Assembly (NCBI GenBank): GCA_900128395.1
Contig: LT649312.1
Span: 1-39,521, forward strand
Source: Stramenopiles sp. TOSAG23-2
Taxonomy: Eukaryota
Length of the DNA stretch: 39,521 bases
Reading direction: 5' to 3'
Part shown: positions 5,138-39,521 of the stretch, one piece after another
Layout of the letters: each line of letters begins with the position of its first letter
Position numbering within the stretch: position 1 is the stretch's first letter
The notes under the pieces: generated by a model
Databases searched by the model: none
What the model was told of the DNA's origin: nothing
The model's input: only the letters and a program-made list of their open reading frames with translations
Translations under genes and position numbers: made by a program

Positions 5138-5209
5138 GTATGTAATATTTATATATAAACCAATTTTATTAATACTAACATGTTTATTTTTGCATAATCA
5201 TATATACAG
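5138..5209 (+). other. 72-nt spliceosomal intron, phase 0, joining the kinase ORF to the PARP ORF
   Basis: CAG|GTATGT donor at 5138, TACTAAC branch point at 5173-5179, CAG| acceptor at 5209. Splicing is in frame (HQNKQ|DKELEKS) and removes the stop at 5156-5158. Confidence 0.9.
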
Positions 5210-8142: not shown

Positions 8143-8352
8143 TGAAATATATATGTTTGATCCAAGTCGATTTTATTTGTTTTGAAAAGCATACATGTGT
8201 GGGGAGTTTATGAATTCGGAATTCGGTGTGGAGAAGAATCTAAAATCTGAAATATATATGTTTGATCCAAGTCGATTTTATTTGTTTTGAAAAGCATACA
8301 TGTGTGGGGAGTTTATGAATTCGGAATTCGGTGTGGAGAAGAATCTAAAATC
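8143..8352. repeat. Exact 105-bp tandem duplication (8143-8247 / 8248-8352)
   Basis: Two identical non-coding copies. Confidence 0.95.
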
Positions 8353-8611
8353 TAAAATCTAGTACGTATACGTATATGTGGTTAAAATCTAAAAGTTATG
8401 AGTGAGTTACTGAACCTGGTGGACAGGCGTATGACGGTGCTAAATTGACCTAGTAAAAAAGTAGTGTAAGAAAAAATTAAGTATAAACCATCCCCGAAAT
8501 CTTCACGTTTGAAAGTTAGCGAATATAGTATTATGCTGAGCACATGAGCACATGAGCAATGAGCACATGCGCTCACTGATTCTATAGCGATTAGTATACT
8601 ACAGCTCTTAT

Positions 8612-13600: not shown

Positions 13601-16600
13601 ATGATTCTGGTGAAATAATTCATATAATAGTGGCCCAATTATTACTTTTAACTAAGCTAGCCGAAGGAGACAATGTTAGTAGAGAAAAACAATCCGATTT
13701 GGCCAGGAATCTAAAAAGGGCTTTGAACCAAGTGATGGATATAAGGAAAGATGTATCTTCTGGATGGTACCGCGCTTTAGACCTTCCTTCCATATTAGCT
13801 CCAATGAAAACATTAGCATTAAAATTAAATGCTATCTCATTGACAAATCCCGGAATGAATACAACATCATCACCAACAACAACAATATCATCAGATTCTA
13901 TATCCTCTGTTACAGGGCTTATTTATTTATGCATACCAAATATTGAAAAAGATAAATATGAAAATGTTAATATTCAATTTTTATTAGAAGCACAACATAT
14001 ACAACAATTTACAGGTGCAAAACTTTATCAAGGGAATTATGAAACGTTTTTAGAAACAATTGACTCACATGAAAATCAATCTATCAAATGGATACATTTT
14101 ATTGGACATGGTGGTAAAAATACATTTGGACGTGATTTAGGACTTGTATTAGCCGATGATAAAGGAAATTTAGAACATATTGAAGATGAACGTTTAATAA
14201 AAACATTGCGTACACGTACAACGCAACTCGAATTAGTAACATTTAATGCATGTTCTACAAGTAAATTAGTGGCCGCAATAACAAAACAAAATGGAGTGAA
14301 ACATTCATGGGGATGGTCAACAAAATGCCATGGTTATGCTGCAGCTATTATTGGAAAATGGTTTTATTATCATCATATAGTATTAAAGAAGTCCGTATTG
14401 GATGCATTTGAATGTGCAAAAAGTTATGTTGATGTAAAAACAAAAGTGATTGGAAAAGGTGTTGATAATGTTCTCATTTCAGAGGAACAATTTGTATTTG
14501 GTGATCCATCGAAAAAAACAAAAATTGATAACATGGATGTAGCTGGTATACCATTATTACTAAATAACAAATGGCAAGATAAATTTCCATATGCCTGGTA
14601 TGCACTTTCATATAAAAAAACATGGTCGAAGAAAATTCATAATAATAAATTTAATGAAGTGTTATATTATGTTTGTAGCAATGAAAATGAAATTTGCACT
14701 GTAACGGGCATACGTGGATGTGGTGGTGCAGGTAAAACTGTACTTTGTTTACAATTGGCTCAAGATCCGTTGATCTATTCGACATTTAAACACGGTGTTG
14801 TATATATCAAAGCAGGACAAGAAGCAAGACCGCTTAATATATTAAAACAATGTTTTAAACAATTGAAAGAGGACAAGAAATTAATTAAATTAAATATAAA
14901 GGATGAAAAAGATTATGAAATATATCTTGATGGAGAGAAAACGTTTGGGGTTGACGATGAAACAATGACGCGAAATTGGGTCAATGATAAAAAGTTAAAG
15001 TGGTTAGTTGAAAAATTACAGCAATATTTGCAAGGCATAGATTTACATGCTGTTGTTATTATTGATGATGTTTGGTCCGACAAGTGTTTTGATCACTTAA
15101 CTTCAATAATACAAGCAAAGGCATGCAATTCGCGTATTGTTATATCAACAAGAAATAGTACCATATTGGAAGGTAAAGATAAAAAAGAATTTTGTTTAGA
15201 TACATTAAATGAGACGGATGCCATTGATTTTTTCAAGGGGCAAACAAATGATAATGATAGTAATTGGAACGAAAACGACTTAAAAGATATTGTTAACAAG
15301 ACTGGCAAACTTGTCCTTTTTCTCTCCATATTAGCAAAAAAAGTTAACTTTAAAAACTACGAAGATGGTGGTTTAAATCGTATACTAAAAGCATTAGATC
15401 CTAATCGATCGACATTAAGAAACACTTCAATTGGATTAAAAAAAATCTTCAATAAAGCAGAAGATGATGTAGCATATGGAAAATCTGCATTAGCTTGCTT
15501 ATCAATTGGTGTTGATTTTATTGAAGATGATATTCAAGATGATCAAGGTAAAGAGGTACAAAATAAATATATCATGTTGGGTATATTTCCTGAAGATAGT
15601 GAAATATCATATGAAGCATTAAAGGTATTATGGAATTTTGATGATATAAATTATGTCGAAGAACATGTTGAATATTTTTCTAATCAATCTCTTTTAGTTA
15701 ATAATCGAACAGGTAAATATATTAAAATGCATAATTTACAGTGTAGATATGTGATTGAACGTTTGAAGGAAGATAATGATGGTATTGAAATTGATCAATT
15801 ACTTAAAATTATAGCAAGTACCATGGTTGAATTTCCAAATGCTTTTAAGGATTGTGTTGAAACGACCAACATTATTTGTTCATCGATTATATGTGCATGC
15901 GAGAGAGGGCGTTTGGAAGATCTCAACATATTGCTTGAAGCTAAGGATAGTGTTAATAAATTCGGCAAAAGCATTCGTGGTCATGAATGTACACCTTTAA
16001 TGGCAGCATGTGTATGTGGGCATTTAAAAATCGTAGAATTGCTATTGAGTAAAGGTGCTGATGTTTTACAAGCAGAAAGTCGATTTGGTTGGACTGCTTT
16101 GCATTGGACTATATTATGTGAACCAAAACCAGACGAATATATCCAGATAATAAATAAGCTTTTGGAGGTAAAAGCAGAAGCATTAGTAAATCAAAGAACA
16201 CGGCAAGGGGAAACTGCGTTAGATTGTGCAAGTAACAGACTTGATTCTGTTGAATTTTGTGAATTATTGAAAATGAAAGGGGGGAAACGAAGGGTCGAAT
16301 TAGAAGAATATACGAGGAAAGCTGAGCGGATAAATTACTTGTTTGAGGCGGTAAAAGATGATGATATGATAAGCATTTACATAGGTGAGCTAACTAATGG
16401 TGATGAAAATAGTGTACTAGAACATTATGTGGATGATAATGGCAATAATCTGCTTCATCATGCTGCAATGCATAGTAAAAATGCCGATACAATGAAATTA
16501 TTATTACAACACACGTTGTTAGAGGAAGCTGTATTTAAAAACGAAATCACAAAAAAGACACCATTAGATGTTGCAAAGGAACGTAAGAAAAAAAACGACG

Positions 16601-17031
16601 AAACAGAGATTAAAAACAAAATTACTAAAAAGGCGCCATCGGAAATTGAAGTTATGATTGCATTGTTAATGAAAACCAAATACGTAAAAGATTTATATGC
16701 AGCTGTTAAAAATGATAACCAGGCTTCAATAATAGAATGCATAAAGCAGCTCGATAGTCTAGCTTTAATACTGTATGGCAAGGGTGAAAAGATTATACTA
16801 GGGCATTATTTGAATGATGCTTGCAATAATCTGCTTCATCATGCTGCAATGCATAGTAAAAAGGCCAGTACAATGAAATTATTATTACAATACATGTTGT
16901 TAGAGGATGCTGTATTTGAAAACAAAATCACGAAAAAGACACCATTACAGGTCGCAGAGGAACGGAAGAAAGAAAACGACGGAACAGAGATTAAAGAGAT
17001 AATTACATTGTTAAAGATGAAATTTGAGTAG
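10687..17031 (+). CDS. STAND NB-ARC (APAF-1-like) NLR-type protein: BRCT - WGR-like - HEPN - coiled coil - CHAT protease - NB-ARC - ankyrin repeats
   Basis: BRCT: IICLAGWF..LENILEKYG..GSDKYEAAKKLGI. WGR-like: RRYG..AKKKMDELVKEKRKEGY. HEPN: NFVRIGILIL..FRFAFVHRW, DLDVT, RNKKLAH (13108-13128). CHAT: HFIGHG (His 14107), FNACS (Cys 14251). Walker A GCGGAGKT (14716-14739), Walker B VVIIDDVW, sensor ISTRN, MHN (15727). ANK: TPLMAACVCGH, GWTALHW, GETALD, NLLHHAA twice. Confidence 0.88.
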   Translation: MAEVINPGQKGGQEDSSKPIICLAGWFYTDESRTWKSFIKHPDLENILEKYGITVNNRVPKKKKECDFLLVSEGNPEDERKDSKGKKYYYRNIARIKIKSSETNPQQSDEKQIWIDGSDKYEAAKKLGIEIKHDKDARAYIQELLSNSYEIHELTKEGTDDVWQIRRYGQFLIHLWKHKKHTIIRGIVAFDNAKKKMDELVKEKRKEGYDDIDKNENSEFIGPSKPFKCSSFPQITPFLSTKQKNERIKVFIQDIKDCTKNNFKFNIIMSDLGMFVEIFLLELKKCKNNKKLQRIKNGIKEQFNRLVEVAKEKKNTEKEGKDWYFLLILFPMIIAMDENEKNYILQRDMKRIENQYYNRKSKTESKKDKSRQVPKEPTHDDMYKTHILSCNQQEKFKELQQKFKNSKSIDKVEIKNFHKAIRESISLKTLQKMIKYMKIKTDIADIAEIHSNEDAKKTEITEDIVGFESIDPDGGLFTKAPMETSNSGVNNFCAAFSCCFTSQKNNYVNFVRIGILILEAIPQIFRFAFVHRWNNLYPHFEFKIKQAESGRRLVDGGDVIRRASNEKWTISRIQQHQVKKRFYTCIMSEDLKTELTGRIQNLKRGDGEVCLVFHDTDNFKYLKAQHIIKIEEKENLINSNDKTLKFEYKFTSIILMTFNDLIVNKIFENTYVTKKKEKEYEKTYLCEKLLLENLLKTTLEKSSEQVDIVHRIPGPNWDKIKGKTIDENSKHLFENAMIDDLDVTCMNAIFKNIGGLCDMKSDQFNKGEKERKKLYKNKNITTFEAWIDKVGESNISPEVILNELKFIRNKKLAHRHSTKVPDKEWRYCKELFLYFLGILIENKWLSKEEVTKLKKKVKEAEAVNMSDGMNTVENIQSRMETLFSNIDTQVKEFEKNVSKVKKDAQQFGDIVSKAGDDTQRLGKVVTKFEKFASCFEDMIKVLNLNSNNDIIKNEERKNDMQKPVSDKINYSNDSGEIIHIIVAQLLLLTKLAEGDNVSREKQSDLARNLKRALNQVMDIRKDVSSGWYRALDLPSILAPMKTLALKLNAISLTNPGMNTTSSPTTTISSDSISSVTGLIYLCIPNIEKDKYENVNIQFLLEAQHIQQFTGAKLYQGNYETFLETIDSHENQSIKWIHFIGHGGKNTFGRDLGLVLADDKGNLEHIEDERLIKTLRTRTTQLELVTFNACSTSKLVAAITKQNGVKHSWGWSTKCHGYAAAIIGKWFYYHHIVLKKSVLDAFECAKSYVDVKTKVIGKGVDNVLISEEQFVFGDPSKKTKIDNMDVAGIPLLLNNKWQDKFPYAWYALSYKKTWSKKIHNNKFNEVLYYVCSNENEICTVTGIRGCGGAGKTVLCLQLAQDPLIYSTFKHGVVYIKAGQEARPLNILKQCFKQLKEDKKLIKLNIKDEKDYEIYLDGEKTFGVDDETMTRNWVNDKKLKWLVEKLQQYLQGIDLHAVVIIDDVWSDKCFDHLTSIIQAKACNSRIVISTRNSTILEGKDKKEFCLDTLNETDAIDFFKGQTNDNDSNWNENDLKDIVNKTGKLVLFLSILAKKVNFKNYEDGGLNRILKALDPNRSTLRNTSIGLKKIFNKAEDDVAYGKSALACLSIGVDFIEDDIQDDQGKEVQNKYIMLGIFPEDSEISYEALKVLWNFDDINYVEEHVEYFSNQSLLVNNRTGKYIKMHNLQCRYVIERLKEDNDGIEIDQLLKIIASTMVEFPNAFKDCVETTNIICSSIICACERGRLEDLNILLEAKDSVNKFGKSIRGHECTPLMAACVCGHLKIVELLLSKGADVLQAESRFGWTALHWTILCEPKPDEYIQIINKLLEVKAEALVNQRTRQGETALDCASNRLDSVEFCELLKMKGGKRRVELEEYTRKAERINYLFEAVKDDDMISIYIGELTNGDENSVLEHYVDDNGNNLLHHAAMHSKNADTMKLLLQHTLLEEAVFKNEITKKTPLDVAKERKKKNDETEIKNKITKKAPSEIEVMIALLMKTKYVKDLYAAVKNDNQASIIECIKQLDSLALILYGKGEKIILGHYLNDACNNLLHHAAMHSKKASTMKLLLQYMLLEDAVFENKITKKTPLQVAEERKKENDGTEIKEIITLLKMKFE
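16420..16997 (+). repeat. Internal duplication of a C-terminal ankyrin unit (about 16420-16615 and about 16803-16997)
   Basis: HY(V/L)..NNLLHHAAMHSK.A.TMKLLLQ..LLE.AVF.N.ITKKTPL.VA.ERKK.ND.TEIK occurs twice with high DNA identity. Confidence 0.85.
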
Positions 17032-23646: not shown

Positions 23647-24656
23647 GTTGTATATTATAAACGTACACACACACAGCGTATATATATATATGTGGTAAGT
23701 TATTGACTGACGACTACACTATCGTAGAATAAAGGTAGAGGTAATATGTTTGAACTTCTATTCTCACTACATCTACATCTACATCTACATCTACATCTTC
23801 TGCAATCATCATCAAAATACACAATATATATATATATATATTAATTTAAAATCATAAAATCCCATTGTTAGTAGTGTTAAAATTGTTGCAAAATTGGAAA
23901 ATAATTTTCAAAAAATTAAAATTTGCCAAATGGATTAGAATGGAGGAGGGATTTTATTAGTATTTTTACGTCCTTTGAGACTTTTATTTAGTATACATAC
24001 AGCATCAATAAATTTGAAACCAATTATCCGCTTTTGTCATTTCAAAATATTAATATATTTACATAGTATTCCATGTGGTATTATATGTAATATTGTACGA
24101 AATTCATTCATCTTTTTTATTATTACTACTATACTACTACAGGTACTTTTTTTTTTTCAGTTATAAAAAAACAAAGCACCTTAACCTGCCAAACAATAGC
24201 AACAACAATAAAAGTAAGCTGTAAGCTACAAGAAACAAGATACAAGATATACAAGATACAAGATAAAAGATAAGAAACATACTGCAACTATTATACTCTC
24301 CATTCACGCTATATAGAACTTCTGTAGGGGTTGTATACATTGTTTTTTACCTTTTGGTGTGGTTTTTATTCCTTTGGTCAACAATATTGAAGATCGTGCC
24401 AACAAAAATATCCCGAAAAAGTATTTTAATATAGATATAAGTAAACTACATATATAAAAGTTTATTGCAAAGGAATTGCTATCGGTTTTGGTAGGACTCC
24501 GTTTGGTAGGTATAGATACGAAAGATATTTCATTCACGTTTTATTCCTTCTTTTAAAGCTGTATACAGTATACAGGTGGATTGCTTTTGTCTCGACGGAG
24601 CTGCTTCTTTGGTTATAGTCAGAGTGGTTAGTTATTACTTAATCTGTAGGTTAAAT

Positions 24657-26852
24657 ATGAAGCTGTTTATTTTTAGTCTATGTCTGTCAATGGCTGTTGC
24701 TGCAGAGAGGTTGGATCAAAGAGAACTGGATGCATGGCAGAAGGTATGGGACCATTGGGATCTTGGTAATAAAACAATGTCTTATAATGACTATGTTGAT
24801 CAATATATAATAGATGTTGACAAACAATTCACAATGGATAAAACTTGTCGTAATGACCCGTGTAAAAGTGAATTGTGTTCGCGAATAAGCGATATAGAAA
24901 CTATCGGATTTAATTCTTTTACGTGGCGAGGAGTCGGGGTATATTGTACCTCAACAGCATCTCCAACAATTATTACTATATTATCGATCTCTGGGGCTCA
25001 ATTGTCAGGTCAGATACCTCCACAGGTAGGCAACCTCACCAATTTGGAAGGTTTGGCAATTTATAATAATCGTCTATCCGGCAAAATACCACCAGAAATA
25101 GGCAGACTTACGAGGCTGAAACGTTTGAATTTGTGGGGAAATAGATTATCCGGCGAAATACCACCCGAGATAGGTAAACTGACTAAACTCACGGATTTGT
25201 ATTTAGACTCCAATGGCATATCAGGTTTAGTCCCGCCAGAGTTAGGGAATCTAAATGACCTACGATTTCTTAGTCTTGCTAACACTTCATTAACGGAAGA
25301 TCTTCCCATTGAATTGACACAGTTGAACAATATGATATCTATGACGATTGGAATGAATAGATTCAATTACCCGCAACCGATAGAGATCCAACAGTTTTGC
25401 AAAGAACGGGGAAGGTCGTGTTTCGGTACACCGCCGATGGGTTGTTCTGCTTATGGGAAGGAATATCAACAAGCATTGAATTTCCAGACATGTACCAGAT
25501 GTACGTATCCACTTTGGTTGCGCATTGTACTGTGTATATTGCTAGCATTTTTTCTGTATGCCGCAATGCGTTTATATGTCAAGTTTACTTTATCTCACAC
25601 AAATGCAATTTCTGAAGTCGTGGCATCTATTACCATTATATCTGATCATGGTCAAATATCAAGTATTTTAACAAACTTGAATCTTGTTTATCCTAATTCT
25701 ATAATGGAAACTAGGGCATATCTAAAAGGGTTTTCGTTGGATATACTTGCAATGGTAAATGTACAATGTTTTGGGCGACATGCCGATAAGGGAAATTTCG
25801 ATTCACATGATACAGGTGCTTACGAAGGCATAACACTTTTGGTTAGTATATTTATCATCGGATTATGCATCCCATTAATAAAATGTTGGGCAAATTTTTA
25901 TCGGCGGTGTTTCGATTCCACATTGCGTCGAGATGAACTACTTGATCGTTTCTATAGTATTTTTTCAATATTGATATCATTTATACTTGTTCAAATGGTG
26001 AGTGCTTTGATTAACTATATGTCGAATTTTTATTTCGTATTTTTTATACTTGTTTTATTGAGCTTTCCATTATTGATAATCTACTGGATTATGCTTAAAT
26101 ATTTTCGCGAAATTCGAGTATATCAAGGAAAATGGGATGGTGCAATGTGTCGTTGTTGTTGCCCAAAAAAATTTCCCAGTATGTGCTGCATATGCTGTTG
26201 CTTTTTTAAGCCATTAAACCTTAGCAAACAGCGTTTAAAGAAACGGTTGCATTTTTTTGTAAGTAGGTTTTCAAATCGTGCTCCTTACTGGCAATTTGTT
26301 TTATGGATAAGGCAAATAGCTATTGTTTTTATTGCTTTATTTTTTGCAACCGAACCGATAATAATGATAGTTCTTGCTACGATTGCATGTATAGTTTTTT
26401 TAGTATGGCATTTACGTGTCCAACCTTTTGTACACAAGTTTCAAAACAATGTAGAAAGTGTACTATTAGCATCGAGTATTGTTTTACTGATATTATGTGG
26501 CATTTATAGTGAATTAACTCGTAAAAAAATCATGCTCGTAGATTCTGCTATTAGTATTGTGTTTTCCATCGTGATTTTCTTGATTTTATTTGGATCACTG
26601 ATAGGAGGAGTCTATTACTTGAAATTATGGACAAAGATGAAAGAATCTTTCATAGCTATGTTGAAAGAAACTGATGAAAAGGATAAAATTCGAATGGCAG
26701 GAGGGGTAGAAATAGTAAATCACAGAAAAAGTGTTTCAAACCTTGCAAAACAAGTGAATTGTTCTGTAGAAGATTTAGAAGGTCATATAGAAGATGGAAA
26801 TAGAAGATTGTCTATTGTAACAAATCCCTTATATGTAAAAAATGACTCATAA
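24657..26852 (+). CDS. Cell-surface receptor-like protein: signal peptide, plant-specific-type LRR ectodomain, multi-pass (about 7-8 TM) C-terminal region
   Basis: MKLFIFSLCLSMAVAA signal peptide from ATG 24657. WRGV..C cap, 24-aa LRRs (LxxLxLxxNxLSGxIPPEIG), Cys-rich linker, several hydrophobic segments, YWQFVLWIRQ and VQPF..QNNVE motifs. Confidence 0.8.
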   Translation: MKLFIFSLCLSMAVAAERLDQRELDAWQKVWDHWDLGNKTMSYNDYVDQYIIDVDKQFTMDKTCRNDPCKSELCSRISDIETIGFNSFTWRGVGVYCTSTASPTIITILSISGAQLSGQIPPQVGNLTNLEGLAIYNNRLSGKIPPEIGRLTRLKRLNLWGNRLSGEIPPEIGKLTKLTDLYLDSNGISGLVPPELGNLNDLRFLSLANTSLTEDLPIELTQLNNMISMTIGMNRFNYPQPIEIQQFCKERGRSCFGTPPMGCSAYGKEYQQALNFQTCTRCTYPLWLRIVLCILLAFFLYAAMRLYVKFTLSHTNAISEVVASITIISDHGQISSILTNLNLVYPNSIMETRAYLKGFSLDILAMVNVQCFGRHADKGNFDSHDTGAYEGITLLVSIFIIGLCIPLIKCWANFYRRCFDSTLRRDELLDRFYSIFSILISFILVQMVSALINYMSNFYFVFFILVLLSFPLLIIYWIMLKYFREIRVYQGKWDGAMCRCCCPKKFPSMCCICCCFFKPLNLSKQRLKKRLHFFVSRFSNRAPYWQFVLWIRQIAIVFIALFFATEPIIMIVLATIACIVFLVWHLRVQPFVHKFQNNVESVLLASSIVLLILCGIYSELTRKKIMLVDSAISIVFSIVIFLILFGSLIGGVYYLKLWTKMKESFIAMLKETDEKDKIRMAGGVEIVNHRKSVSNLAKQVNCSVEDLEGHIEDGNRRLSIVTNPLYVKNDS

Positions 26853-28012: not shown

Positions 28013-30037
28013 ATGCCGGAACCACAAATTGGGGATCGTGTACGTGTCATAGGACGTAATGCAATACATGAAGGTACATGCAAATATTTTGGGACCACAT
28101 TATTTCGTGAAGGATATTGGGTTGGTGTTGCATTAGACTATCCAAATGGTAAAAATGATGGTTGTGTAGAAGGTACCAGGTATTTCAATTGTAGACCTAA
28201 TTATGGTTTATTTGCTAGGGTGCAAGTTGTTGAAATATTACAAACAAGGCAACAAATTCAACAACGACAAGTGCAGCAGCAGCAACAGCAGCAACAGCAA
28301 CAACCACTAGCACAAATGCAACAACAACAACAACAACAATCACGACAAAACAATGGTTTATCAACAACCTCATCCTCCCCACCACTACGTATTAAATCAT
28401 TAGGTGGACAACTACGAGTAAAATCAAATATATTTCGATTTGAAAAGGTTCGAAATGAATGGTCAGAAATTGGAGATGGGTATGTTAATTTATATGTTGC
28501 AATGAGTGAAAGAAATGTTCCACGTGTTACACTTCAAGGTGCACGTAATAATCTTGGAATTGTTAATCATTATATTGAAATTGAGACAAAACTTGAACCA
28601 AATGTTGGTAGTGATCGTGCTTGGGTATTTCGTGCAAAAACATTACAAGATGATAAAGGGGAAGTATTAGCTTTGCAATTTCAAACACCAAAAGATGCAA
28701 TGGATTTCTCATCACATTTTGCTCGTTCTTGTCAAACAGTTCGACAATACAGAACAAAAGGTAGCAATAGTAATAATAATAGTATCAATAATAATAATAT
28801 CAATAATAATAATAATAATAATAATAATGCAGCACCACCACCAGCTCCACAATCTAATAATAATAATAATAACAATAATAGTAATGGTCAAATGGCACCA
28901 CCACCACCACCACCACCACCACCAGAAGAAGAAGAAGAAGAAGAGGAGGAGGTGAGACAACGGAATAATTATAATAATGCAAATGGTGGTTTTACTACTA
29001 CTAATAGTAATGGTAACCTTTCGAAAAAAATTCAAAAACAACGAAGACGTTTAAGTATTGCTGGAAACGATGCACGTGCAGATGGTGTAGTACATCGTTC
29101 TTCCACAACAAATCCAAATGGAAATAAAATGGATACAAGGAAAAAAGGTGCAAATTTAAATGGTCAATTTCAAGCTACATCAAGCAACACTATTGTTAAA
29201 AGTTACATTGGTATGTCAAAAAAAGGATATGCACCATATAATATTAAAAAAGAAAACCAAGATGCATGTTTTATGCATGAGGATCCAATTACACAATCTA
29301 TTTTATTAGGTGTATTTGATGGACATGGTGAGCATGGACATCGTGTATCCCGTTACATAGAGCGCAATGTACCACCAGCCATTTTTAAGCATCCTAGCTG
29401 GAAAAGTACACCAAAAACGGCAATGACAACTGCATTATTATCCAAGGAGAAAGAAATATTGCAAAATCGATCGATCAATACATCGTTAAGTGGGACAACA
29501 GCAGTAGTTGCAACTGTACGTAAAAATATATTAACCGTAGCAAATATTGGAGATTCCAGATTGATATTAGCATTGAGAAATAATAAAAATCGTTTAAAAC
29601 CATGTAGTGTGACGGAGGATCATAAACCAGATTTACCAACGGAACAAAAAAGAATTGAACGAGCTGGTGGACGTGTATGGGCAATGACATATGATGATGG
29701 TGTAGATGGCCCTGCAAGAGTATGGTTAAAAGATCAAGAATTACCAGGCCTTGCCATGTCACGTAGTATTGGTGATGAAGTTGCAAAACGTGCTGGGGTT
29801 ATCTCCAATCCAGAAATATTTGAATATGAAGTACCAGAACAAGCTGCATTTTTATGTATGGCAACTGATGGTTTATGGGAATTCATGTCGGATGATGATG
29901 TAGTTCATATCATTGAACAAGCAAATGGGAATGGTAAATTAGCAATACAAACATTGATGAAAGAATCAGAACGAAGATGGAAAAACGAAGAGCCTGTAGT
30001 GGACGATACGACGGTAGTCATTGCATATTTTGAGTAA
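28013..30037 (+). CDS. CAP-Gly + RanBP1-like (RanBD/PH-fold) + PP2C protein phosphatase
   Basis: CAP-Gly WVGVALDYPNGKNDGCVEGTRYF. RanBD-like IFRF..EWSEIGDG..NHYI..LEPNVGSDRAWVF. PP2C NQDA, VFDGHG, SGTT, NIGDSR, DHKP, GLAMSRSIGD, ATDGLWE, DDTT. Confidence 0.88.
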   Translation: MPEPQIGDRVRVIGRNAIHEGTCKYFGTTLFREGYWVGVALDYPNGKNDGCVEGTRYFNCRPNYGLFARVQVVEILQTRQQIQQRQVQQQQQQQQQQPLAQMQQQQQQQSRQNNGLSTTSSSPPLRIKSLGGQLRVKSNIFRFEKVRNEWSEIGDGYVNLYVAMSERNVPRVTLQGARNNLGIVNHYIEIETKLEPNVGSDRAWVFRAKTLQDDKGEVLALQFQTPKDAMDFSSHFARSCQTVRQYRTKGSNSNNNSINNNNINNNNNNNNNAAPPPAPQSNNNNNNNNSNGQMAPPPPPPPPPEEEEEEEEEVRQRNNYNNANGGFTTTNSNGNLSKKIQKQRRRLSIAGNDARADGVVHRSSTTNPNGNKMDTRKKGANLNGQFQATSSNTIVKSYIGMSKKGYAPYNIKKENQDACFMHEDPITQSILLGVFDGHGEHGHRVSRYIERNVPPAIFKHPSWKSTPKTAMTTALLSKEKEILQNRSINTSLSGTTAVVATVRKNILTVANIGDSRLILALRNNKNRLKPCSVTEDHKPDLPTEQKRIERAGGRVWAMTYDDGVDGPARVWLKDQELPGLAMSRSIGDEVAKRAGVISNPEIFEYEVPEQAAFLCMATDGLWEFMSDDDVVHIIEQANGNGKLAIQTLMKESERRWKNEEPVVDDTTVVIAYFE

Positions 30038-32147: not shown

Positions 32148-34868
32148 CTAAAAACGATATCGACCCCTTGCCATTCCACCAAAACCATTGCTTGGATTAT
32201 GACTAGTATTACTATTCCATCGATTGAAATTCTTATTTTTAAATCCATGGCTTGATGGTGGATTCCGTAATGCATGGCTTGATGGTGGCGCACGAATACC
32301 AAACCCAGCAGTGCCAAAACCAGCTGTACCTCTACGGATACCATGTGAGCTTCTCAATCCATGGGAGGAACCGACTAAACGCCCACCTACATTACGACCA
32401 GAACTAGATGGTGGTTGCCTACCATGACTAGATGGTGGACCTTTGAAAGAAAAACGATCAGATTGTTGACCATAACCAGATGATCGTTGTCCATAACCTG
32501 AACTATTCACATTGCTATAATTATTTTTCTTGGAATTAAAACCAGACGGTTGATAATAATTCATCGATGTACGTTTATTATGCGAATCATCACGAGAGCT
32601 ATGCGTTCCTCTAGAACTATGCGTTCCATTTCTACCATGACTACTATAACTATGATGATGATTGTGATAGCTGTTATTATTACCATTGCTATTGCTATTA
32701 CTGCTACTATCTACTTCACCAAATTTAAATTCATATGGAACACCACCAGAATCTTTTTCACGAACTAATTTTTCTCTACCAATACGTTGATCATTATTAT
32801 TAATAATATTTTGCCGATTATGATGATCATTACTATTTGTAACATCTTTTGGACCACCACGATGATTACCATTACTACTACTACTACTACTGCTACTATT
32901 ACTATCTTGTTGTTGATGATGATCTGATTTAGTATTATTACCATATCTACTACCAATTAAAAATGATGCATTTGCTTCTTTCACACCACGTTTTGGAATC
33001 GAAGGTCGATATTTATCTTTATTATAACGTCTTGATCTACCACCATGTATTTTTCGTATACCATTTCCTTGATTTTCATCATCTAATCTTAAATTTGGAA
33101 ATGCTACTAAACGTTTTGCTTTAGGAGTCGATGCGCGTAAACCTGGATCATTTTGATGATAATGATGATAATTATTATTATCATTTTCATTATTGTAGAG
33201 ATTATTATTATTGCTACGTTCAATTGGTTTATCATATTGATTTTTTTTATTAATATGTTCACGACTATCTATACCGACCATGCTACTATTTGAACTTTTA
33301 ACATTGACAACGTTGTTTTTACTACCTTCATGATCATCATATTTAGACGAAGCATTATAATCTTGTTGTTGTTGATGTGATGGTGGTGTCATCGCACGGT
33401 TGTTGCCATTGCTATTGCTATTATTATTATTATTATTATTATTAGTAGTAGTAGTATTGCTTTGATTGACATTTGGTAAATGTGAAGAAGATGTTTGTAT
33501 TTTACTTTCTAATTGATCTATTGCATCTTTATGTACTTCTTCTTCAAAACGTTCTAATGATCGATCACGATGTCGTTTTTCCCTACGTTCCCGTCTATCA
33601 ATACTACGATCTCTATCACGTCTACTATCTTTACTACGATTTCTACCACGTTCCCTACGTCGTTCTCGTCTTTCTTCACGTTCAATCGATTTATTATCTC
33701 TACGATTATGATTATTACTATTATTATTATTATTATTTTCCTCATCGATTAATGAACTACTTCGTCTTTCTCTACTTCTACCACGACTTCGATCCCTATC
33801 ATTGTTTCTTCGTTCTCTACTCCTTTCCCTGCTACTTTCACGGCTTCCACGTTTTTCCCTACTTCTACCACGGCTTTCATCACGATTACGTTGTCTACCC
33901 CGATCACGTTTTTTACTACGTTTACGTTTCATTGCAAATTCACTATCATCTAATGCTAAACTAGCTTTAAATTCATCTTTAAAATCATTTGCAAATGTTT
34001 CAAAATGTTCACAACGCATTAATTCCGTACATGTCGCACGTCGGTCTGGATCATAATCTAAACATAAACTCATTGCTTCTAATTGGGATTTATTTATATT
34101 TGCAAATCGTTTTTCAAGTGTTTCCAATTCATTATCTGTAACTTCTGGTATTTTCACACCAACAAATAATGGATTTTGATGGAAAAATTTCATTTGTTGA
34201 TCTGTTAATTTACCAAAACATCGTATGATATGAAACAATTGATCAATATCGGATTCACCTGGGAATAATGGCAAGCCATTTGTAATTTCAGCAAACATGC
34301 AACCAATTGCCCATACATCTACACCTTTCCCATAGGATGTATCCCCAACTAATAATTCCGGGGAACGATACCAACGTGTACTAACATAATCTGTATATTT
34401 TGCTTTTGGACCAGCTAATGTACGTGCAAAACCAAAATCACATATTTTTAATATACCATTTTTCGATACTAATAAATTTTCTGGTTTAATATCACGGTGT
34501 ATTACATTGTGTGCATGGCAAAATTCCAATGCACGGCATAGTTGCCACATGATTTTTTTCACTGCATTTTTACTTAAACCATCTGGATGTTTTTCTAAAT
34601 CTTCTAATATTGTACGATCTACATATTCAAAGACTAAATATAATTTACCTTTTCTACGAAAGACTTCTATTAAGTTGACGATATTTTCATGTTTCAATTG
34701 TTTCAATATACGCACTTCCCGCAATGCTGTTTTACGTACTTGTTCATCTTCATCCGATTCTTTAAATTTTTTAATTGCAACAATTTGTCCAGTTTCTTTA
34801 TGTCGACATTTTAATACAACACCATATGTACCTTCCCCAATTGTACCTAAATTTTCATAATTTTCCAT
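32148..34868 (-). CDS. CDKL: Cyclin-dependent kinase-like (CDKL family) protein kinase with long low-complexity tail
   Basis: GEGTYGVV, VAIKKFKES, RKTALRE, HRDIKPEN, CDFGFAR, TDY activation loop, TRWYRSPELLVGD, PLFPGESDIDQL. Tail is RS/RE-rich with PPSSHG repeats. Subfamily not assigned. Confidence 0.92.
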   Translation of the reverse strand: MENYENLGTIGEGTYGVVLKCRHKETGQIVAIKKFKESDEDEQVRKTALREVRILKQLKHENIVNLIEVFRRKGKLYLVFEYVDRTILEDLEKHPDGLSKNAVKKIMWQLCRALEFCHAHNVIHRDIKPENLLVSKNGILKICDFGFARTLAGPKAKYTDYVSTRWYRSPELLVGDTSYGKGVDVWAIGCMFAEITNGLPLFPGESDIDQLFHIIRCFGKLTDQQMKFFHQNPLFVGVKIPEVTDNELETLEKRFANINKSQLEAMSLCLDYDPDRRATCTELMRCEHFETFANDFKDEFKASLALDDSEFAMKRKRSKKRDRGRQRNRDESRGRSREKRGSRESSRERSRERRNNDRDRSRGRSRERRSSSLIDEENNNNNNSNNHNRRDNKSIEREERRERRRERGRNRSKDSRRDRDRSIDRRERREKRHRDRSLERFEEEVHKDAIDQLESKIQTSSSHLPNVNQSNTTTTNNNNNNNNSNSNGNNRAMTPPSHQQQQDYNASSKYDDHEGSKNNVVNVKSSNSSMVGIDSREHINKKNQYDKPIERSNNNNLYNNENDNNNYHHYHQNDPGLRASTPKAKRLVAFPNLRLDDENQGNGIRKIHGGRSRRYNKDKYRPSIPKRGVKEANASFLIGSRYGNNTKSDHHQQQDSNSSSSSSSSNGNHRGGPKDVTNSNDHHNRQNIINNNDQRIGREKLVREKDSGGVPYEFKFGEVDSSSNSNSNGNNNSYHNHHHSYSSHGRNGTHSSRGTHSSRDDSHNKRTSMNYYQPSGFNSKKNNYSNVNSSGYGQRSSGYGQQSDRFSFKGPPSSHGRQPPSSSGRNVGGRLVGSSHGLRSSHGIRRGTAGFGTAGFGIRAPPSSHALRNPPSSHGFKNKNFNRWNSNTSHNPSNGFGGMARGRYRF

Positions 34869-36236
34869 GATTATTAGGTATGAAAAGGATTATTGTTTAC
34901 TATATGTCTGTCAATATATATATATATATATATATGTATGTATACACAGACACACACACACACGGCACACTTTTAATGTATCTAATCTGTTTTGATCCAA
35001 GAGCTAGCCGATAAGAATGAATACGCAATGTATATATATATATATCACTTTACACCTTGTAGAAATATATATATAATATTTTGTTTGACTTTGTTTTTTG
35101 AAGTGAAAAATTAAAAAAAAAAAAATAAAAAATGTGAGATTGTGATAGCCGTGTTTTTTTGTATACTAAGCGATAGTAGTGACATAGAATGAAATCATGT
35201 TAATATATTTATACTTAGTATTTTGATGTATAAATTCTATTCCTTCTTCATTTTCTTTTTGTAAATATTTTTTTAGTAAAAATAAATAAATTGAAAGAAA
35301 CCTTTATTATCGGGGTACTTTTTTATATTGGAAAATAATGAATAAAATAATATTCATAAAGTAATATAATTATATATTATGTGATTTATTAATTTCTAAT
35401 AATATAAATATAACAATTGCGGATATTACAGCAATGAAATGTAATTTATGATATTAGGACGAAGTATAACAGTTAATCTGGTTCAGGTTTTCAAAATAAC
35501 GATATGTTTTGGAGTCTACCTGGTATTTACCTGCTAGAATAGATTTACAGGTAAATAGCACCGTGAAATGGTAGGGTTACGGTTAGGGTCCAAATAGGTG
35601 TATATTAACATGTAAATAGTAGTCGGAACACACGACATGTAAATAGCATTGTTATAATGGTTTTGGTGGTGGGTTTTTTTTTGTTTTTTTTGTTGCTGAG
35701 GTCCCAGAGCAACCCAGAGGTATAAAAGGTGCAAAGGTTACTTTTTGGGAAAGGTCACATAGGTAGAGAGGAATCCTCTCTCTAGTTTCTAAGGTTAAAG
35801 GTGCAAAATGCAAAAGCAGTGTGTGATGATTTCCGTCTATATATACATATATAACATATATTTAATTTACGCATAATTTAATGTTTTAATTTTTACTCAA
35901 ATTCAAATGATATAATTCCTACTTCCTACTCTTCAAAAGAATACAATAACTGAAATAATTAATATATATTTACACATTTAATCTATTTTAGGTTTTAAGC
36001 TCTCCAATGATCACACATATTTACACCATTTGCATATCCGACCATTGCTATATATACATCTCGCTACATCGCACAACAATATATGGACATTTATACTAAT
36101 TGAGATTCGATTTTTGAGTATGATAGTACAAAAGTACGGATGCACTGGAAAGAAAAGCATGTCTACTTTCGCGTATAATTACAAGTAATTAAATATAGAT
36201 CTCCCATGATCTTACAAGTACATATTTTCTCTAAAT

Positions 36237-37499
36237 CTACTCCTCCTCCCCATCACCTTTTTTATGTCGTAATAAATAACTTGCAATAAAATGACATGGA
36301 TCGATTTCAACTGGTTTATAATTTTCAAATGGTGTATTTATTTTTTTCTCTTCCAATTTCTCACGTCGTTTTAATAATGCAACTAATGATTCTTGTAAAT
36401 CAGGTAAAATATATTTTTCTAAATATTGTTTTGCATTTAATTTTGCATCATCAACAACTGCATATTTACTTGTTTTACGATTATTTAAATTTAAATCAAC
36501 AATAGGTAAATTGCGTACAATGGATACTAATGATTCATCTAATAATAACGATTCGTCATCTTCCATGTTGTTGTTATTATCATTCGATAATAATAACAAT
36601 TCTTGATAATCATATGGTAATTTGTTTTCATTATTTTTTATATTTTGTTTTGATCCTTTATTAATTAAATAATGACCTATTGCTTCATGACCCATCATAA
36701 AACATAAATGTAATGCAGTATCGCCATCTTTATTTTGTATATTTAACTCATTTATATCTTGAATATTATTACATAAATATTCTACAACCTCCATATGACC
36801 TTCTTTACATGCAACCATTAATGAGGTTTCATTATTATTATTTAATACATTCACGAATTGTTGATGTTGTGATGATGATGCATTATTGTTATTATTATTA
36901 CTGTTCGATATAGTTAATAACATTTTACATGATTCTTTTAAACCACACATAGATGCAATGTGTAAAGCTGTATTTCCAGATGGTATTTGTTTTTCCATAA
37001 TACCTAATGTTTCTCCAACAATACTATTCTGTTTCTCCATTGTATTAATATTATCATCATCCGACATTGTACTGTAAATTGATTCTATTAATTCTTTTAA
37101 TATTTTTGGTTGTCGACATGCATGAAAAATTGGTAAATTATTTTTTCTATCTGTTTTTTTTAATATTAATGATAACCAATTTGGTTTATGTTTTACAATA
37201 TGTGTACATAATATGTATACGCATTCATACGATTGTTTTTCAATTGCTAAATGCAATGGCATACGCCCTTGTGCATCTTCCATTATAATATCACCACCTA
37301 ATTTATTTTCTAATAATATTTTTAATGCATTTGAATTATTTACGGATATAGATAAATGTAAAAACGTAGATGAATTATTTGTTTTTTGTTGCGTTGATAA
37401 TTGTTTTTTTAATGTTACATTTGTATTTGCATTTTCAATTAATTCCAATAACAATGCATCGTCTCGATTGTATATAGCATTTGTAATCTTAGATGACAT
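36237..37499 (-). CDS. Ankyrin-repeat protein with C-terminal Dpy-30/RIIa-like docking motif
   Basis: ATG at 37499 (MSSK). ANK motifs TFLHLS, GRMPLHLA, GNTALHIA, ETSLMVAC, GDTALHLC. C-terminal QYLEKYILPDLQESLVALL..DPCHFIASYLLRH. Confidence 0.8.
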   Translation of the reverse strand: MSSKITNAIYNRDDALLLELIENANTNVTLKKQLSTQQKTNNSSTFLHLSISVNNSNALKILLENKLGGDIIMEDAQGRMPLHLAIEKQSYECVYILCTHIVKHKPNWLSLILKKTDRKNNLPIFHACRQPKILKELIESIYSTMSDDDNINTMEKQNSIVGETLGIMEKQIPSGNTALHIASMCGLKESCKMLLTISNSNNNNNNASSSQHQQFVNVLNNNNETSLMVACKEGHMEVVEYLCNNIQDINELNIQNKDGDTALHLCFMMGHEAIGHYLINKGSKQNIKNNENKLPYDYQELLLLSNDNNNNMEDDESLLLDESLVSIVRNLPIVDLNLNNRKTSKYAVVDDAKLNAKQYLEKYILPDLQESLVALLKRREKLEEKKINTPFENYKPVEIDPCHFIASYLLRHKKGDGEEE

Positions 37500-37649
37500 G
37501 TTGGATTTGATTGTAATCAAAGTAGTAGTAGTAATGTTTGTCCAATTAATTCCAATAACAATGCATCGTCTCGATTGTATATAGCATTTGTAATCTTAGA
37601 TGACATGTTGGATTTGATTGTAATCAAAGTAGTAGTAGTAATGTTTGTC
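37436..37649. repeat. Exact 107-bp tandem duplication (37436-37542 / 37543-37649)
   Basis: Two identical copies spanning the start codon of the ANK/Dpy-30 gene. Confidence 0.95.
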
Positions 37650-37833
37650 TAGATCTTTTGTCTTTTCCATTGTATTCTTCAAGATTGATATATATATCCT
37701 ATTTGTTTTCTATTATTATGTTTTAAATAAGTAAATATATATAACGGACAGACTTTGTTGTATTTAGTGGTGTGTTATTATATATTAATTTATATAGGGA
37801 TATTGTAGTTGATAGTATATAAATAGATATATA

Positions 37834-39521
37834 TTAATTATTATGTAGGAATATCTCCATCCTTTTCACTTGTTGATACCCGTTTGATCCAGCTTGTTTA
37901 TATTGTTGTATAGCTTTTAATTGTGATTTCATATTAGAACTAAGTTGATTATTAACTAGGCGCAATCTCCATAATGTATTGTTTGTTTTTAATCCATCAA
38001 TAATACTTTGTACATCAGTAATATTATTATTATATAGGCGCAAGAACTCTAATGTCTTGTTTGTTTTTAATCCTTCACCAATACTTTGTACATCAGTAAT
38101 ATTATTACCATATAGGTACAAGTGCGTTAATGTATTGTTTGTTTTTAATCCATCACCAATACTTTGTACATCAGTAATATTATTATCATCTAGGAGCAAT
38201 ATCGTTAATGTCTTGTTTGTTTTTAATCCTTCACCAATACTTTGTACATCAGTAATATTATTACCATATAGGTACAAGTGCGTTAATGTATTGTTTGTTT
38301 TTAATCCATCACCAATACTTTGTACATCAGTAATATTATTACCATATAGGTACAAGTGCGTTAATGTATTGTTTGTTTTTAATCCATCACCAATACTTTG
38401 TACATCAGTAATATTATTATTACCTAGGTCCAATCTCGTTAATGTATTGTTTGTTTTTAATCCATCACCAATACTTTGTATTCCACCATCATCAGTAATA
38501 TTATTATTATATAGGTTCAATACTCTTAATGTATTGTTTGTTTTTAATGCTTCGCCAATACTTTGTACATCAGTAATATTATTATCATGTAGGAGCAATA
38601 CCTGTAATGTATTGTTTGTTTTTAATCCTTCACCGATACTTTGTACATCAGTAATATTATTATTACGTAGGTACAATGTCTCTAATGTATTATTTGTTTT
38701 TAATCCTTCGCCAATAATTTGTACATCAGTAATATTATTATTAGATAGGGACAATTTCATTAATGTATTGTTTGATTTTAATCCTTCACCAATACTTTGT
38801 ACATCAGTAATAGTATTATTATTTAGGTACAATTCCGTTAATGTATTGTTTGTATTTAATGCTTCACCAATACTTTGTACATCAGTAATATTATTACCAG
38901 ATAGATACAATTCCTTTAATGTATTGTTTGTTTTTAATGCTTCACCAATACTTTGTACATCAGTAATATTATTATTACGTAGGACCAATGTCTCTAATGT
39001 ATTGTTTGTTTTTAACCCTTCACCAATACTTTGTACATCAGTAATATTATTATTACGCAGGTACAATGTCTCTAATGTATTGTTTGTTTTCAACAATTCA
39101 CCAATACTTTGTACATCAGTAATATTATTATTATCTAGGTCCAAGTTCGTTAACGTATAGTTCGTTAATGTATTGTTTGTTTTTAATGCATCACCAATAC
39201 TTTGTACATCAGTAATAGTATTATTATTTAGGTACAACCTCGTTAATGTATTGTTTGTTTTTAATGCATCACCAATACTTTGTACATCAGTAATATTATT
39301 ATTACGTAGGGCCAAGTACATCAATGTATTGTTTGTTTTTAACACTTCACCAATACTTTGTACATCCTCATCACGGATGTTCTTTCCATCCAAATTTACA
39401 TTACTGTCAGCAAAATTGACTCCATATTTTTTTGTTAATACAACTCTAAAATAATAACAACGCAAAGGATCATATTCAAGAAATTTTTTACATGTTTTCG
39501 CAAACATATTTATCATTGCAA
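37834..39521 (-). CDS. Probable F-box + LRR protein with 18 tandem 26-aa RI-like LRRs (probably 5'-truncated by window edge)
   Basis: 78-bp unit DVQSIG(E/D)xLKTNNTLxxLxLxxNNIT, 18 copies. N-terminal INMFAKTCKKFL..YYFRVVLTKKY aligns with the end of the F-box-like region of the 30588 gene (VNMFARTTKRFL..YYKIVLPRKY). Confidence 0.88.
   Translation of the reverse strand, partial: AMINMFAKTCKKFLEYDPLRCYYFRVVLTKKYGVNFADSNVNLDGKNIRDEDVQSIGEVLKTNNTLMYLALRNNNITDVQSIGDALKTNNTLTRLYLNNNTITDVQSIGDALKTNNTLTNYTLTNLDLDNNNITDVQSIGELLKTNNTLETLYLRNNNITDVQSIGEGLKTNNTLETLVLRNNNITDVQSIGEALKTNNTLKELYLSGNNITDVQSIGEALNTNNTLTELYLNNNTITDVQSIGEGLKSNNTLMKLSLSNNNITDVQIIGEGLKTNNTLETLYLRNNNITDVQSIGEGLKTNNTLQVLLLHDNNITDVQSIGEALKTNNTLRVLNLYNNNITDDGGIQSIGDGLKTNNTLTRLDLGNNNITDVQSIGDGLKTNNTLTHLYLYGNNITDVQSIGDGLKTNNTLTHLYLYGNNITDVQSIGEGLKTNKTLTILLLDDNNITDVQSIGDGLKTNNTLTHLYLYGNNITDVQSIGEGLKTNKTLEFLRLYNNNITDVQSIIDGLKTNNTLWRLRLVNNQLSSNMKSQLKAIQQYKQAGSNGYQQVKRMEIFLHNN

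Follow-up and report, generated by a model that had tools for sequence, protein, structure and literature searches.

How can a handful of codons in a tandem repeat differ between copies in their first two bases and yet keep the third? The question is raised by a leucine-rich repeat (LRR) array encoded on the reverse strand at the end of a 39,521-nt stretch of DNA (hereafter the window) from Stramenopiles sp. TOSAG23-2 (GenBank assembly GCA_900128395.1, contig LT649312.1, positions 1 to 39,521). The initial annotation, made from the sequence alone, had placed the array at 37950-39345, close to the limits of 37897-39324 at which it was cut here, and had read the pattern as very strong diversifying selection combined with homogenisation and shuffling of the repeats, had compared it with variable lymphocyte receptors (VLRs) and had kept a targeted mutator in play. 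Based on the analysis reported here, we regard it as probable that the array is a C-terminal recognition domain shaped by diversifying selection acting on LRR units that are young or have been homogenised; the codon pattern would then be the usual mark of selection for new binding specificities, and not that of a special mutation machine.

Each unit follows the formula L-x1-x2-L-x3-L-x4-x5-NNITDVQSIG(E/D)(G/A)LKTNNT, in which x1, x2, x3, x4 and x5 are the hypervariable codons. Over the 18 units of the window, the third base is G at x1 in 17 (the exception being AGA, in unit 11), C at x3 in 17 (the exception, TAT in unit 6, is synonymous with TAC) and T at x4 in all 18. The counts of the initial annotation were thereby reproduced, and the codon lists that it gave for x3 and x4 match our codon table exactly; the codon x2, by comparison, varies at all three bases, and variable codons beyond those listed earlier were found at x5 (AAT/GGT/GAT) and at codons 19-20 (E/D, G/A/L). 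The wider sample comprised 39 units from five genes, namely 18 from the window and 7, 6, 4 and 4, respectively, from L001, L002, L003 and L004, four loci recovered by a metagenome scan, whose modules are 68-72% identical (loci L005-L008, at 27-53%, were left out). Expected third-base counts were computed from the amino acids present in the 39 units and the local codon usage, for which 10 other open reading frames (ORFs) of the window with 9646 codons served as the background, in which third bases are C in 9% and G in 13%. On this basis, x3 was expected to end in C in 5.8 units and does so in 38 (P=5e-32), x1 was expected to end in G in 9.1 and does so in 34 (P=6e-20), and x4 was expected to end in T in 21.9 and does so in 33 (P=1e-7), while x5 ends in T in all 39 units and the third base of x2 is A in 24, C in 11, G in 2 and T in 2. 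The exceptions at x1 include ACA, AAA and AGA, each of which is synonymous with the G-ending form, and 13 of the 16 possible NNC codons are present at x3. Since C is so infrequent locally and x3 is nevertheless almost always NNC, and since rare framework codons are equally frozen (TTG at L4 in 39/39 units and the rare leucine codon CTA at L6 in 38/39), the fixed third bases are inherited and not preferred.

The evidence that carries the reading as selection is the contrast of substitution rates, which was obtained on 30 canonical units (29 of them unique), the remaining 9 of the 39, with a DGG/DSG insertion or of cap type, having been dropped. At x1, x3, x4 and x5, the nucleotide diversity (pi) is 0.546 at positions 1-2 and 0.080 at the third base, whereas at the 19 framework codons it is 0.016 and 0.072, respectively, and the rest of the 78-bp unit is thus near-invariant, as had been noted before. 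When parsimony was used to count changes on a tree built from the 29 unique units with FastTree, the third bases of these four variable codons were found to have changed 1.00 times per site and those of the framework 0.84 times (binomial P=0.47), whereas positions 1-2 of the same variable codons have changed 6.88 times per site. The claim that the third base is specially fixed could therefore not be upheld, because it changes at the rate of framework third bases. Using the pooled synonymous rate (22.2 changes on 16.2 sites) as the denominator, the nonsynonymous to synonymous ratio (omega) obtained by counting is 5.9 for x3, 5.8 for x4, 4.9 for x2, 3.2 for x1, 1.4 for x5 and 0.22 for the framework, and these values are lower bounds because parsimony undercounts at saturated sites. 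Pooled over x1-x4, nonsynonymous changes amount to 6.9 and synonymous changes to 1.37 per site, a ratio of 5.0 (P=3.6e-13), in agreement with the strong diversifying selection that had been proposed for the concave-face residues. With framework third bases as the calibration, a codon Markov model fitted on a star tree returned an omega of 5-10 for x1, x3 and x4, of 3 for x5 and of 24 or more for x2. The per-site dN/dS and the mutation spectrum, which the initial annotation had named as one way to check its reading and which were run here on units of the five genes, gave a replacement excess at x1-x4 and no mutator signature.

Several points weigh against this reading. Taken singly, the per-codon binomial tests are non-significant (best P=0.057, at x4), and only the pooled test is significant; the tree rests largely on the variable sites themselves; the DNA evidence consists of 39 units of five genes; and selection is inferred from rates rather than from population or clonal data. 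Two further points are shared with an assembly artefact, which is considered below, namely that no listed contig of four runs, the contigs of which were compared with 36000-39521, spans the array, and that exact 107-bp tandem duplications occur at 7244-7457 and 37436-37649. Moreover, a codon model with one omega expects more replacement changes at third bases than were observed in the 30 canonical units: 2.7-5.0 against 1 at x3, 6.2 against 1 at x4, 3.3-3.8 against 0 at x5 and 2.6-4.3 against 3 at x1. This deficit has to be weighed with the non-independence of the tips and with the finding that x4 does not end in T in 6/39 units once the cap units are included; it is mild and, though we are unsure of this, may reflect residue preferences at each position plus the short time available. 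Another 39 units, drawn independently from 26 further proteins of the family, have K/T/E/R/Q/M at x1 in 38/39 and mostly D/R/H/N/S/Y at x4 and x5. At x3, W, Q or E, for which a purine third base is needed, occurs in 7/39 units from these 26 more distant proteins, and therefore the third base does move there. The look of the array is that of a large replacement excess on a background of young silent sites, not that of a locked third base.

The array belongs to the LRR superfamily by its sequence, as the L-x-x-L-x-L-x-x-N motif is found in the 18 units and Pfam models match the gene above their curated cut-offs (LRR_4 with 6.9e-49 and 163 bits, cut-off 27; LRR_6 with 5.5e-26 and 89 bits; LRR_1 with 100 bits; LRR_8 with 90 bits). 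A single-sequence AlphaFold2 model, with a predicted local distance difference test (pLDDT) of 81.6 and a predicted template modelling score (pTM) of 0.82, has one strand and one helix per unit, and this predicted alternation of strand and helix is that of an LRR solenoid. The modelled strand covers x2-L-x3-L-x4, which in unit 13 corresponds to residues 387-391. In LRR geometry the side chains of the strand alternate, L4 and L6 facing the core and x2, x3 and x4 the solvent; according to the model, x2, x3 and x4 would thus lie on the exposed side of the sheet, and x1 and x5 would flank the strand. By sequence, the solved structures matched include a ribonuclease inhibitor (RI)-like protein (9y6s_4e, 1.6e-22), NOD2 (5irm, 1.2e-20), RI (1dfj, 4.4e-17) and also NLRP3, and Foldseek returned LRR solenoids in general with E of 1e-15 to 1e-9, including Roco, internalin, RI and NLRP14. 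Separately, codon 20 of the unit (G/A/L/I/S/V; e.g. 38307-38309 in unit 13), which lies on the helix and not on the strand face, shows 13 nonsynonymous and 2 synonymous changes.

The coordinates of the gene and its parts are collected in the table. At 37972-39166, Tandem Repeats Finder detected 15.2 copies of a 78-bp period that match at 87%, along with overlapping repeat calls; of the 18 units into which the array was cut, 16 have 26 residues (78 bp), while insertions lengthen unit 3 by 5 codons and unit 11 by 3. The N-terminal sequence INMFAKT..KFLEYDPLR is common to the window gene, L001 and two proteins, P0016 and P0040, and the true N-terminus must lie outside the window, because these three relatives carry ~100-130 further residues upstream. 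At the other end, the 3′ flank can be aligned with L001 and L003, and the shared module therefore reaches past the stop codon. As a separate observation on the tail, the window has KQAGSNGY in place of the KRDGSNGY found in all four DNA relatives and in most proteins, and at positions 37892, 37896, 37937 and 37938 the family letters and not those of the window are carried by 94-100% of the contig depth of the four runs; the contigs with family letters at these four positions are probably derived from paralogues.

Table. Features of the LRR-module gene at the end of the window, in window coordinates.
Feature	Position	Strand	Description or basis
LRR-module gene	37834..39521	-	ORF 37834-39516, 560 aa from an internal ATG; frame still open where the window ends
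N-terminal cap unit of the LRR module (KNIRDEDVQSIGEVLKTNNT)	39325..39384	-	DNA homology of the other family genes starts about here (~39395)
17 tandem 78-bp (26-codon) units	37975..39324	-	Tandem Repeats Finder, unit cutting and codon table
Unit 18, C-terminal cap unit (LWRLRLVNNQLSSNMKSQLKAIQQYK)	37897..37974	-	L-x-x-L-x-L face kept; runs into the conserved tail helix of the family
Conserved family tail (..GSNGYQQVKRMEI..) and stop codon	37834..37896	-	Alignment with relatives
3′ flank, ~55-60 nt	37774..37833	-	Alignable to L001 (4000-4709 against window 38480-37774) and L003 (1011-1492 against 38239-37779)

The module was found to be shared by a large family. Of 7996 candidates scored in a word-indexed protein search, 291 reached E<=1e-10, and none of these was identical to the query. 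When the last 98 residues were used in an exhaustive HMMER search, the number of representatives was 2414 at E<=1e-3 and fell to 352 at 1e-10 and to 22 at 1e-30; many of the close ones are short fragments. The closest proteins are 60-73% identical over the C-terminal part only, the unit and the conserved tail (NNQLSDNMKSQLKAIQQYKRDGSNGYQQVKGM..) being shared behind unrelated N-termini, and ten close proteins and the four DNA loci carry these shared units and tail. All 78 blastn rows of at least 150 nt obtained against L001-L004 likewise fall within 37774-39521 of the window, with alignments that begin at the N-cap. Among 19 family proteins, Pfam found ankyrin repeats in 4, Peptidase_C14 in 2 (P0019 and its locus L004), and Pkinase, TIR_2, XK-related and biotin-lipoyl domains in 1 each. 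NACHT or NB-ARC was found by the same scan in 0/19 close family proteins, the N-terminus of the window gene itself lying outside the window, and more distant matches (39-47% identity) carry NACHT according to precomputed Pfam assignments. Three details of the relatives may be recorded here: in L003 (1-1431), TIR_2 stands before the LRR module and is itself preceded by the apparent end of a kinase domain; in L004 (5002-6531), a caspase (Peptidase_C14) domain stands before the module; and the linker KKSAAY.KWEKE.D.K before the N-cap is common to L003, L004 and the protein P0013.

As to the distribution of the family, half or more of the sampled words of 34000-39521 were found in 8 runs, and most of these, as well as most of the other runs in which such words occur, carry the label of a marine or seawater metagenome; six RNA runs contain 0.18-0.27 of the sampled words, a figure that refers to this whole stretch and not to the LRR gene specifically. 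In the viral contigs of IMG/VR, an exact 29-nt framework word had 0 matches, and a protein-pattern scan had 9, none of which was confirmed, and in the prokaryote genomes of GTDB no close relative was found, the 5 loci at 32-46% identity being generic LRRs that were not used. Neither the full-text literature, in a non-exhaustive search in which the motif is not searchable by meaning, nor the source names of five members yielded a description of the family. The array is probably the C-terminal sensor module of a large unnamed family present in marine, probably stramenopile, protist DNA.

Explanations other than selection have to be weighed against these findings. Relaxed constraint at the variable codons was ruled out, as the replacement rate there is five-fold the silent rate. 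Regional hypermutation of the face, whether AID-like, RIP-like or transcription-coupled, with the leucines then retained by purifying selection, could also be imagined, as the variable bases of each unit cluster within 24 nt. However, a mutator blind to codon phase would also strike the interleaved silent sites, and these are not accelerated, neither the third bases of x1, x3, x4 and x5, which change at about the framework rate as described above, nor the four-fold CTA codon between x3 and x4 or the TTG codon, which are kept as described above; in addition, transitions and transversions stand at 22:47 at the variable bases, with no excess of C-to-T or G-to-A, and a local hypermutator is thus very unlikely. 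A templated mutator of the diversity-generating retroelement (DGR) type, in which an error-prone reverse transcriptase randomises the adenines of a template AAG AAA. AAC. AAT AAT to give NNG NNN NNC NNT NNT, accommodates all five variable codons formally, x2 with its three variable bases included, and NNC and NNT codons avoid stop codons as they do in DGR targets. Yet the changes inferred at the variable bases start from A 36, from G 17, from C 8 and from T 8 times (n=69), in line with the composition (A 50%), and 18/30 framework consensus-A sites are invariant in the 29 unique units, in a framework that is adenine-rich. No reverse transcriptase domain is found in the 9 large ORFs of the window, the largest gap of which holds no ORF of >126 aa, and, outside the array, the tandem repeat scan of the window found no further copy of the unit that could act as a template; moreover, each of numerous units in numerous genes would need its own template, and the organism is eukaryotic, all of which makes this mechanism extremely improbable. 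The targeted mutator that the initial annotation had kept in play is thus disfavoured in either form, since silent sites 1-2 nt from hypervariable bases are not accelerated and changes start from all four bases. Assembly or rearrangement in somatic cells, as known from lamprey VLRs, in which the array would be one of many products of a pool of unit cassettes, would agree with a summed word depth in run X2 of 315-6975 over the array against 159 in the flank, a depth that is summed over paralogues and gives no copy number but hints that the unit is highly multi-copy, and with contigs that hold joints between distant units, which paralogues would also give. Against this, genomic DNA already contains the gene as a complete, uninterrupted frame that has its caps and its tail. 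The runs X2 and X4, from different studies and years, gave contigs of the same length (487) and with the same ends at 37543-37992, and an 83-nt piece with 8 other letters at 39033-39115 likewise matches in both, which suggests stable inheritance; with regard to somatic variation, the four runs were compared as contigs, in which rare variants drop out. The likeness to VLRs drawn by the initial annotation does not extend to the mechanism, as there is one complete germline reading frame and nothing points to cassette assembly, to which we give hardly any credence.

Two other explanations concern the history of the array. It might be an artefact of assembly, the 18 units being a chimera or a mis-ordered join of units from paralogous genes, and besides the two points given above this is favoured by the pieces of contigs lying wholly inside the array, which measure only 77-126 nt among the 32 listed of 1289, by the contigs of X2 and X4, which skip the second copy of the duplication at 37436-37649 (joint from 37435 to 37543), and by L001, the closest relative with the same N-terminus, which has only 7 units. 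That the duplications at two unrelated places have the equal length of 107 bp suggests an assembly or scaffolding artefact; a further tandem duplication, of 105 bp and 99%, lies at 8143-8358, and the ORF 36237-37520 starts inside the duplication at 37436-37649. Elsewhere in the compared region, the contigs of X2 and X4 depart from the window at 8 letters and 1 gap over ~1.4 kb of the neighbouring ankyrin/Dpy-30 gene, and at 17 letters and 7 gaps over the 3′ end of the LRR gene (37543-37992). Nevertheless, the frame is unbroken over 560 codons and has proper caps, and such an artefact, which we consider unlikely, would alter the number and order of the units only, as the codon-level pattern recurs in four independently assembled loci. 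Concerted evolution, on the other hand, would have ancient face alleles maintained by balancing selection and gene conversion homogenising everything else, third bases included. In its favour, framework third bases differ by 0.058 within genes and, although the N-termini are unrelated, by 0.079 between genes, the tail shows a similar likeness with a third-base pi of 0.052 (its first bases change more, 0.148), and the homology continues ~60 nt past the stop codon; furthermore, the window and L001 differ at 1/102 nt in the shared N-terminal part and at 12/87 nt in the adjoining module start (P=0.0007), and L001 and L004, two loci of separate assemblies with unlike N-termini, have in common the face TYLSLD (1 nt apart) together with the rare ACA variant in ACA-GAA-TTG-TAC. 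However, the low third-base diversity inside the variable codons (pi 0.080) marks the face alleles as young, and because contiguous conversion tracts cannot leave old bases 1-2 beside a young base 3, the face substitutions should be recurrent and recent; the sharing of near-identical faces, in addition, is not above chance. Concerted evolution in the place of recurrent substitution is accordingly rather unlikely, and exchange is probably an addition to recurrent new substitutions, not a substitute for them.

Exchange as an additional process, alongside the diversifying selection that we favour, may have left its mark on the recurrence and distribution of units and modules. As the initial annotation had stated, the face THLYLYG occurs three times and ETLYLRN twice. 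For THLYLYG, all 78 nt agree between units 14 and 16, from which unit 13 departs at 2 nt; for ETLYLRN, the two copies are units 4 and 9, with 3 nt of difference across the unit. Overall, near-identical faces nonetheless do not recur beyond chance, as 8 pairs with <=2 differences were observed against 4.6 in column shuffles, and 187/2000 shuffles reach 8. The window gene has 18 units and L001 has 7, the N-terminus being common to both and the flanks not; at third bases, the two differ in 1/34 codons of the N-terminus and in 4/29 of the module start, a weak contrast that is not relied on. Judged from these sequence comparisons, modules or units may move between genes. Of the homogenisation and shuffling proposed earlier, the process itself stays plausible, though weakly shown, and the sharing of faces does not rise above column shuffles.

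Among the known systems, the LRRs of RI, NOD2 and NLRP3 resemble the array in being its best solved-structure sequence matches, in the strand-helix solenoid and in Pfam LRR_6. RI-like units have 28-29 residues, whereas the unit described here has 26 and by its length is not RI-like, and the units of RI and NLR LRRs, unlike those of the array, are not near-identical at the DNA level. The NNITD motif recalls what we take to be the 26-residue cysteine-containing (ITD) and GALA LRR classes. In lampreys, the germline VLR gene is incomplete and is filled in with flanking cassettes in somatic cells; VLRs share with the array a conserved LRR framework, a variable concave face and many genomic copies of the unit, and differ from it, in a comparison that draws on contigs alone, in that the array is a complete germline gene. 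DGR targets are similar in their NNC and NNT variable codons with the third base kept, and dissimilar in that the array has no adenine specificity and has invariant framework adenines, no template repeat or reverse transcriptase having been found in the window. Hypervariable xxLxLxx residues are classical for plant NLRs (NOD-like receptors), the LRRs of which have irregular, old units, whereas the units of the array are young or homogenised, and therefore the contrast between codon positions is unusually clean. Diversifying selection on solvent-exposed strand residues of plant NLR and receptor LRRs is also stated, in general terms, in the introduction of Dyrka et al. (2014; PMC4986451).

That article describes, for the non-self recognition genes of the fungal NLR and HNWD type (Podospora), WD, ANK and TPR repeats with high internal conservation, positive selection on 3-5 binding-surface positions per repeat, polymorphism of repeat number and combinatorial N-terminal domains, proposes shuffling within and between family members, and reports no LRR among 5,616 fungal NLR candidates (Dyrka et al., 2014). 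The array resembles the fungal system in its near-identical tandem repeats (87% matches over 15.2 copies), in selected positions that lie in or beside the strand, with an omega at x1-x4 of 3-6 by counting and of 5-10 or more in the model, and in one repeat module that stands behind many different N-terminal effector domains. It differs from that system in the type of repeat, which is an LRR, in close members that lack a nucleotide-binding oligomerization domain (NOD; 0/19), in its marine stramenopile-like protist host, and in that repeat-number polymorphism and exchange are only hinted at in the LRR family. The internally conserved and positively selected repeats of fungal NLRs are accordingly the closest known regime, here in an LRR version.

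The rest of the window is AT-rich (GC 27-36%), with long uninterrupted ORFs that carry eukaryote-type domains, and is rich in signalling and repeat proteins; scans with Rfam and for tRNA genes gave no matches in it. Some ~20 kb from the array, a 2114-aa ORF at 10687-17031 (+) combines NB-ARC (7.5e-14) with following ankyrin repeats, an NLR-like architecture of the STAND (signal transduction ATPases with numerous domains) class and of fungal type. At 1-2322 (+) lies an ankyrin-repeat ORF with a 273-bp higher-order tandem period at 697-2273 (5.8 copies, 70% matches), followed by an ankyrin-kinase protein at 2276-5158 (+) and a protein with a PARP catalytic domain at 5219-7366 (+). A second LRR protein, of a different type (LRR_14), is encoded at 24576-26852 (+) and a CAP-Gly-RanBP1-PP2C fusion at 28013-30037 (+), and a C2 domain and a Dpy-30 motif also occur in ORFs of the window. 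The CDKL-type kinase at 32148-34868 (-) has its best named relatives in oomycetes (Aphanomyces 70-73%, Phytophthora 68-69%), while marine and EukProt sequences reach 83-93%. This kinase is the one taxonomic pointer obtained, and with the marine labels of the runs it suggests a marine, probably stramenopile, protist.

Based on these findings, we propose the following course of events, which is deduced from extant sequences. Members of the family pair varied N-terminal domains (ankyrin, protein kinase, caspase-like peptidase C14, TIR, XK-related and others) with one module, consisting of the N-cap, 2 to 17 or more 26-residue LRR units, the C-cap and the conserved tail. All units may descend recently from one ancestral unit, or exchange may keep them alike, and it is to such recent common descent or exchange that the framework and the silent sites, the third bases of the variable codons included, would owe their near-identity (pairwise difference ~6-8%). 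Ordinary germline point mutations at bases 1-2 of the five codons would then have been fixed ~5-10 times faster than silent changes, driven by the altered amino acids on the putative ligand-binding face, that is, by diversifying selection. Because changes at the third bases mostly leave the amino acid unchanged, these would have proceeded at the neutral rate, which would give the array its 'NNG / NNN / NNC / NNT / NNT' look. Duplication of units, as for units 13, 14 and 16, would change the number and order of the units, and unequal crossing-over or exchange between genes probably does so as well. The predicted function would be one in recognition, possibly of an immunity-like kind.

A more far-reaching possibility is that N-cap, units and tail form an exchangeable recognition cassette of a unicellular marine stramenopile, swapped among genes with effector domains of the death and signalling types (TIR, caspase, kinase and ankyrin). 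Its units would be drawn anew from hundreds of near-identical copies across the genome, giving a combinatorial, NOD-less LRR repertoire for non-self that evolves by exchange of units together with selection. We give this only a small chance; if true, a free-living microbe would have arrived independently at the logic of fungal NLRs or VLRs, and in its boldest form the rearrangement would be ongoing (mitotic).

In conclusion, this work describes a clean natural case in which selection can be separated from hypermutation by the codon pattern, because silent third bases and leucine codons act as built-in neutral reporters. The LRR face evolves like that of immune receptors, and it belongs to an undescribed effector-plus-LRR family, with TIR, caspase, kinase and ankyrin heads, in an abundant, uncultured marine protist lineage, for which the family may constitute a recognition repertoire. 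If the members are indeed recognition or defence proteins, the strategy of conserved repeats with a hypervariable surface, described for fungal WD, ANK and TPR repeats, would extend to LRRs and to stramenopile-like protists, and the family would offer a way into the question of how viruses, bacteria or prey are perceived by marine protists.

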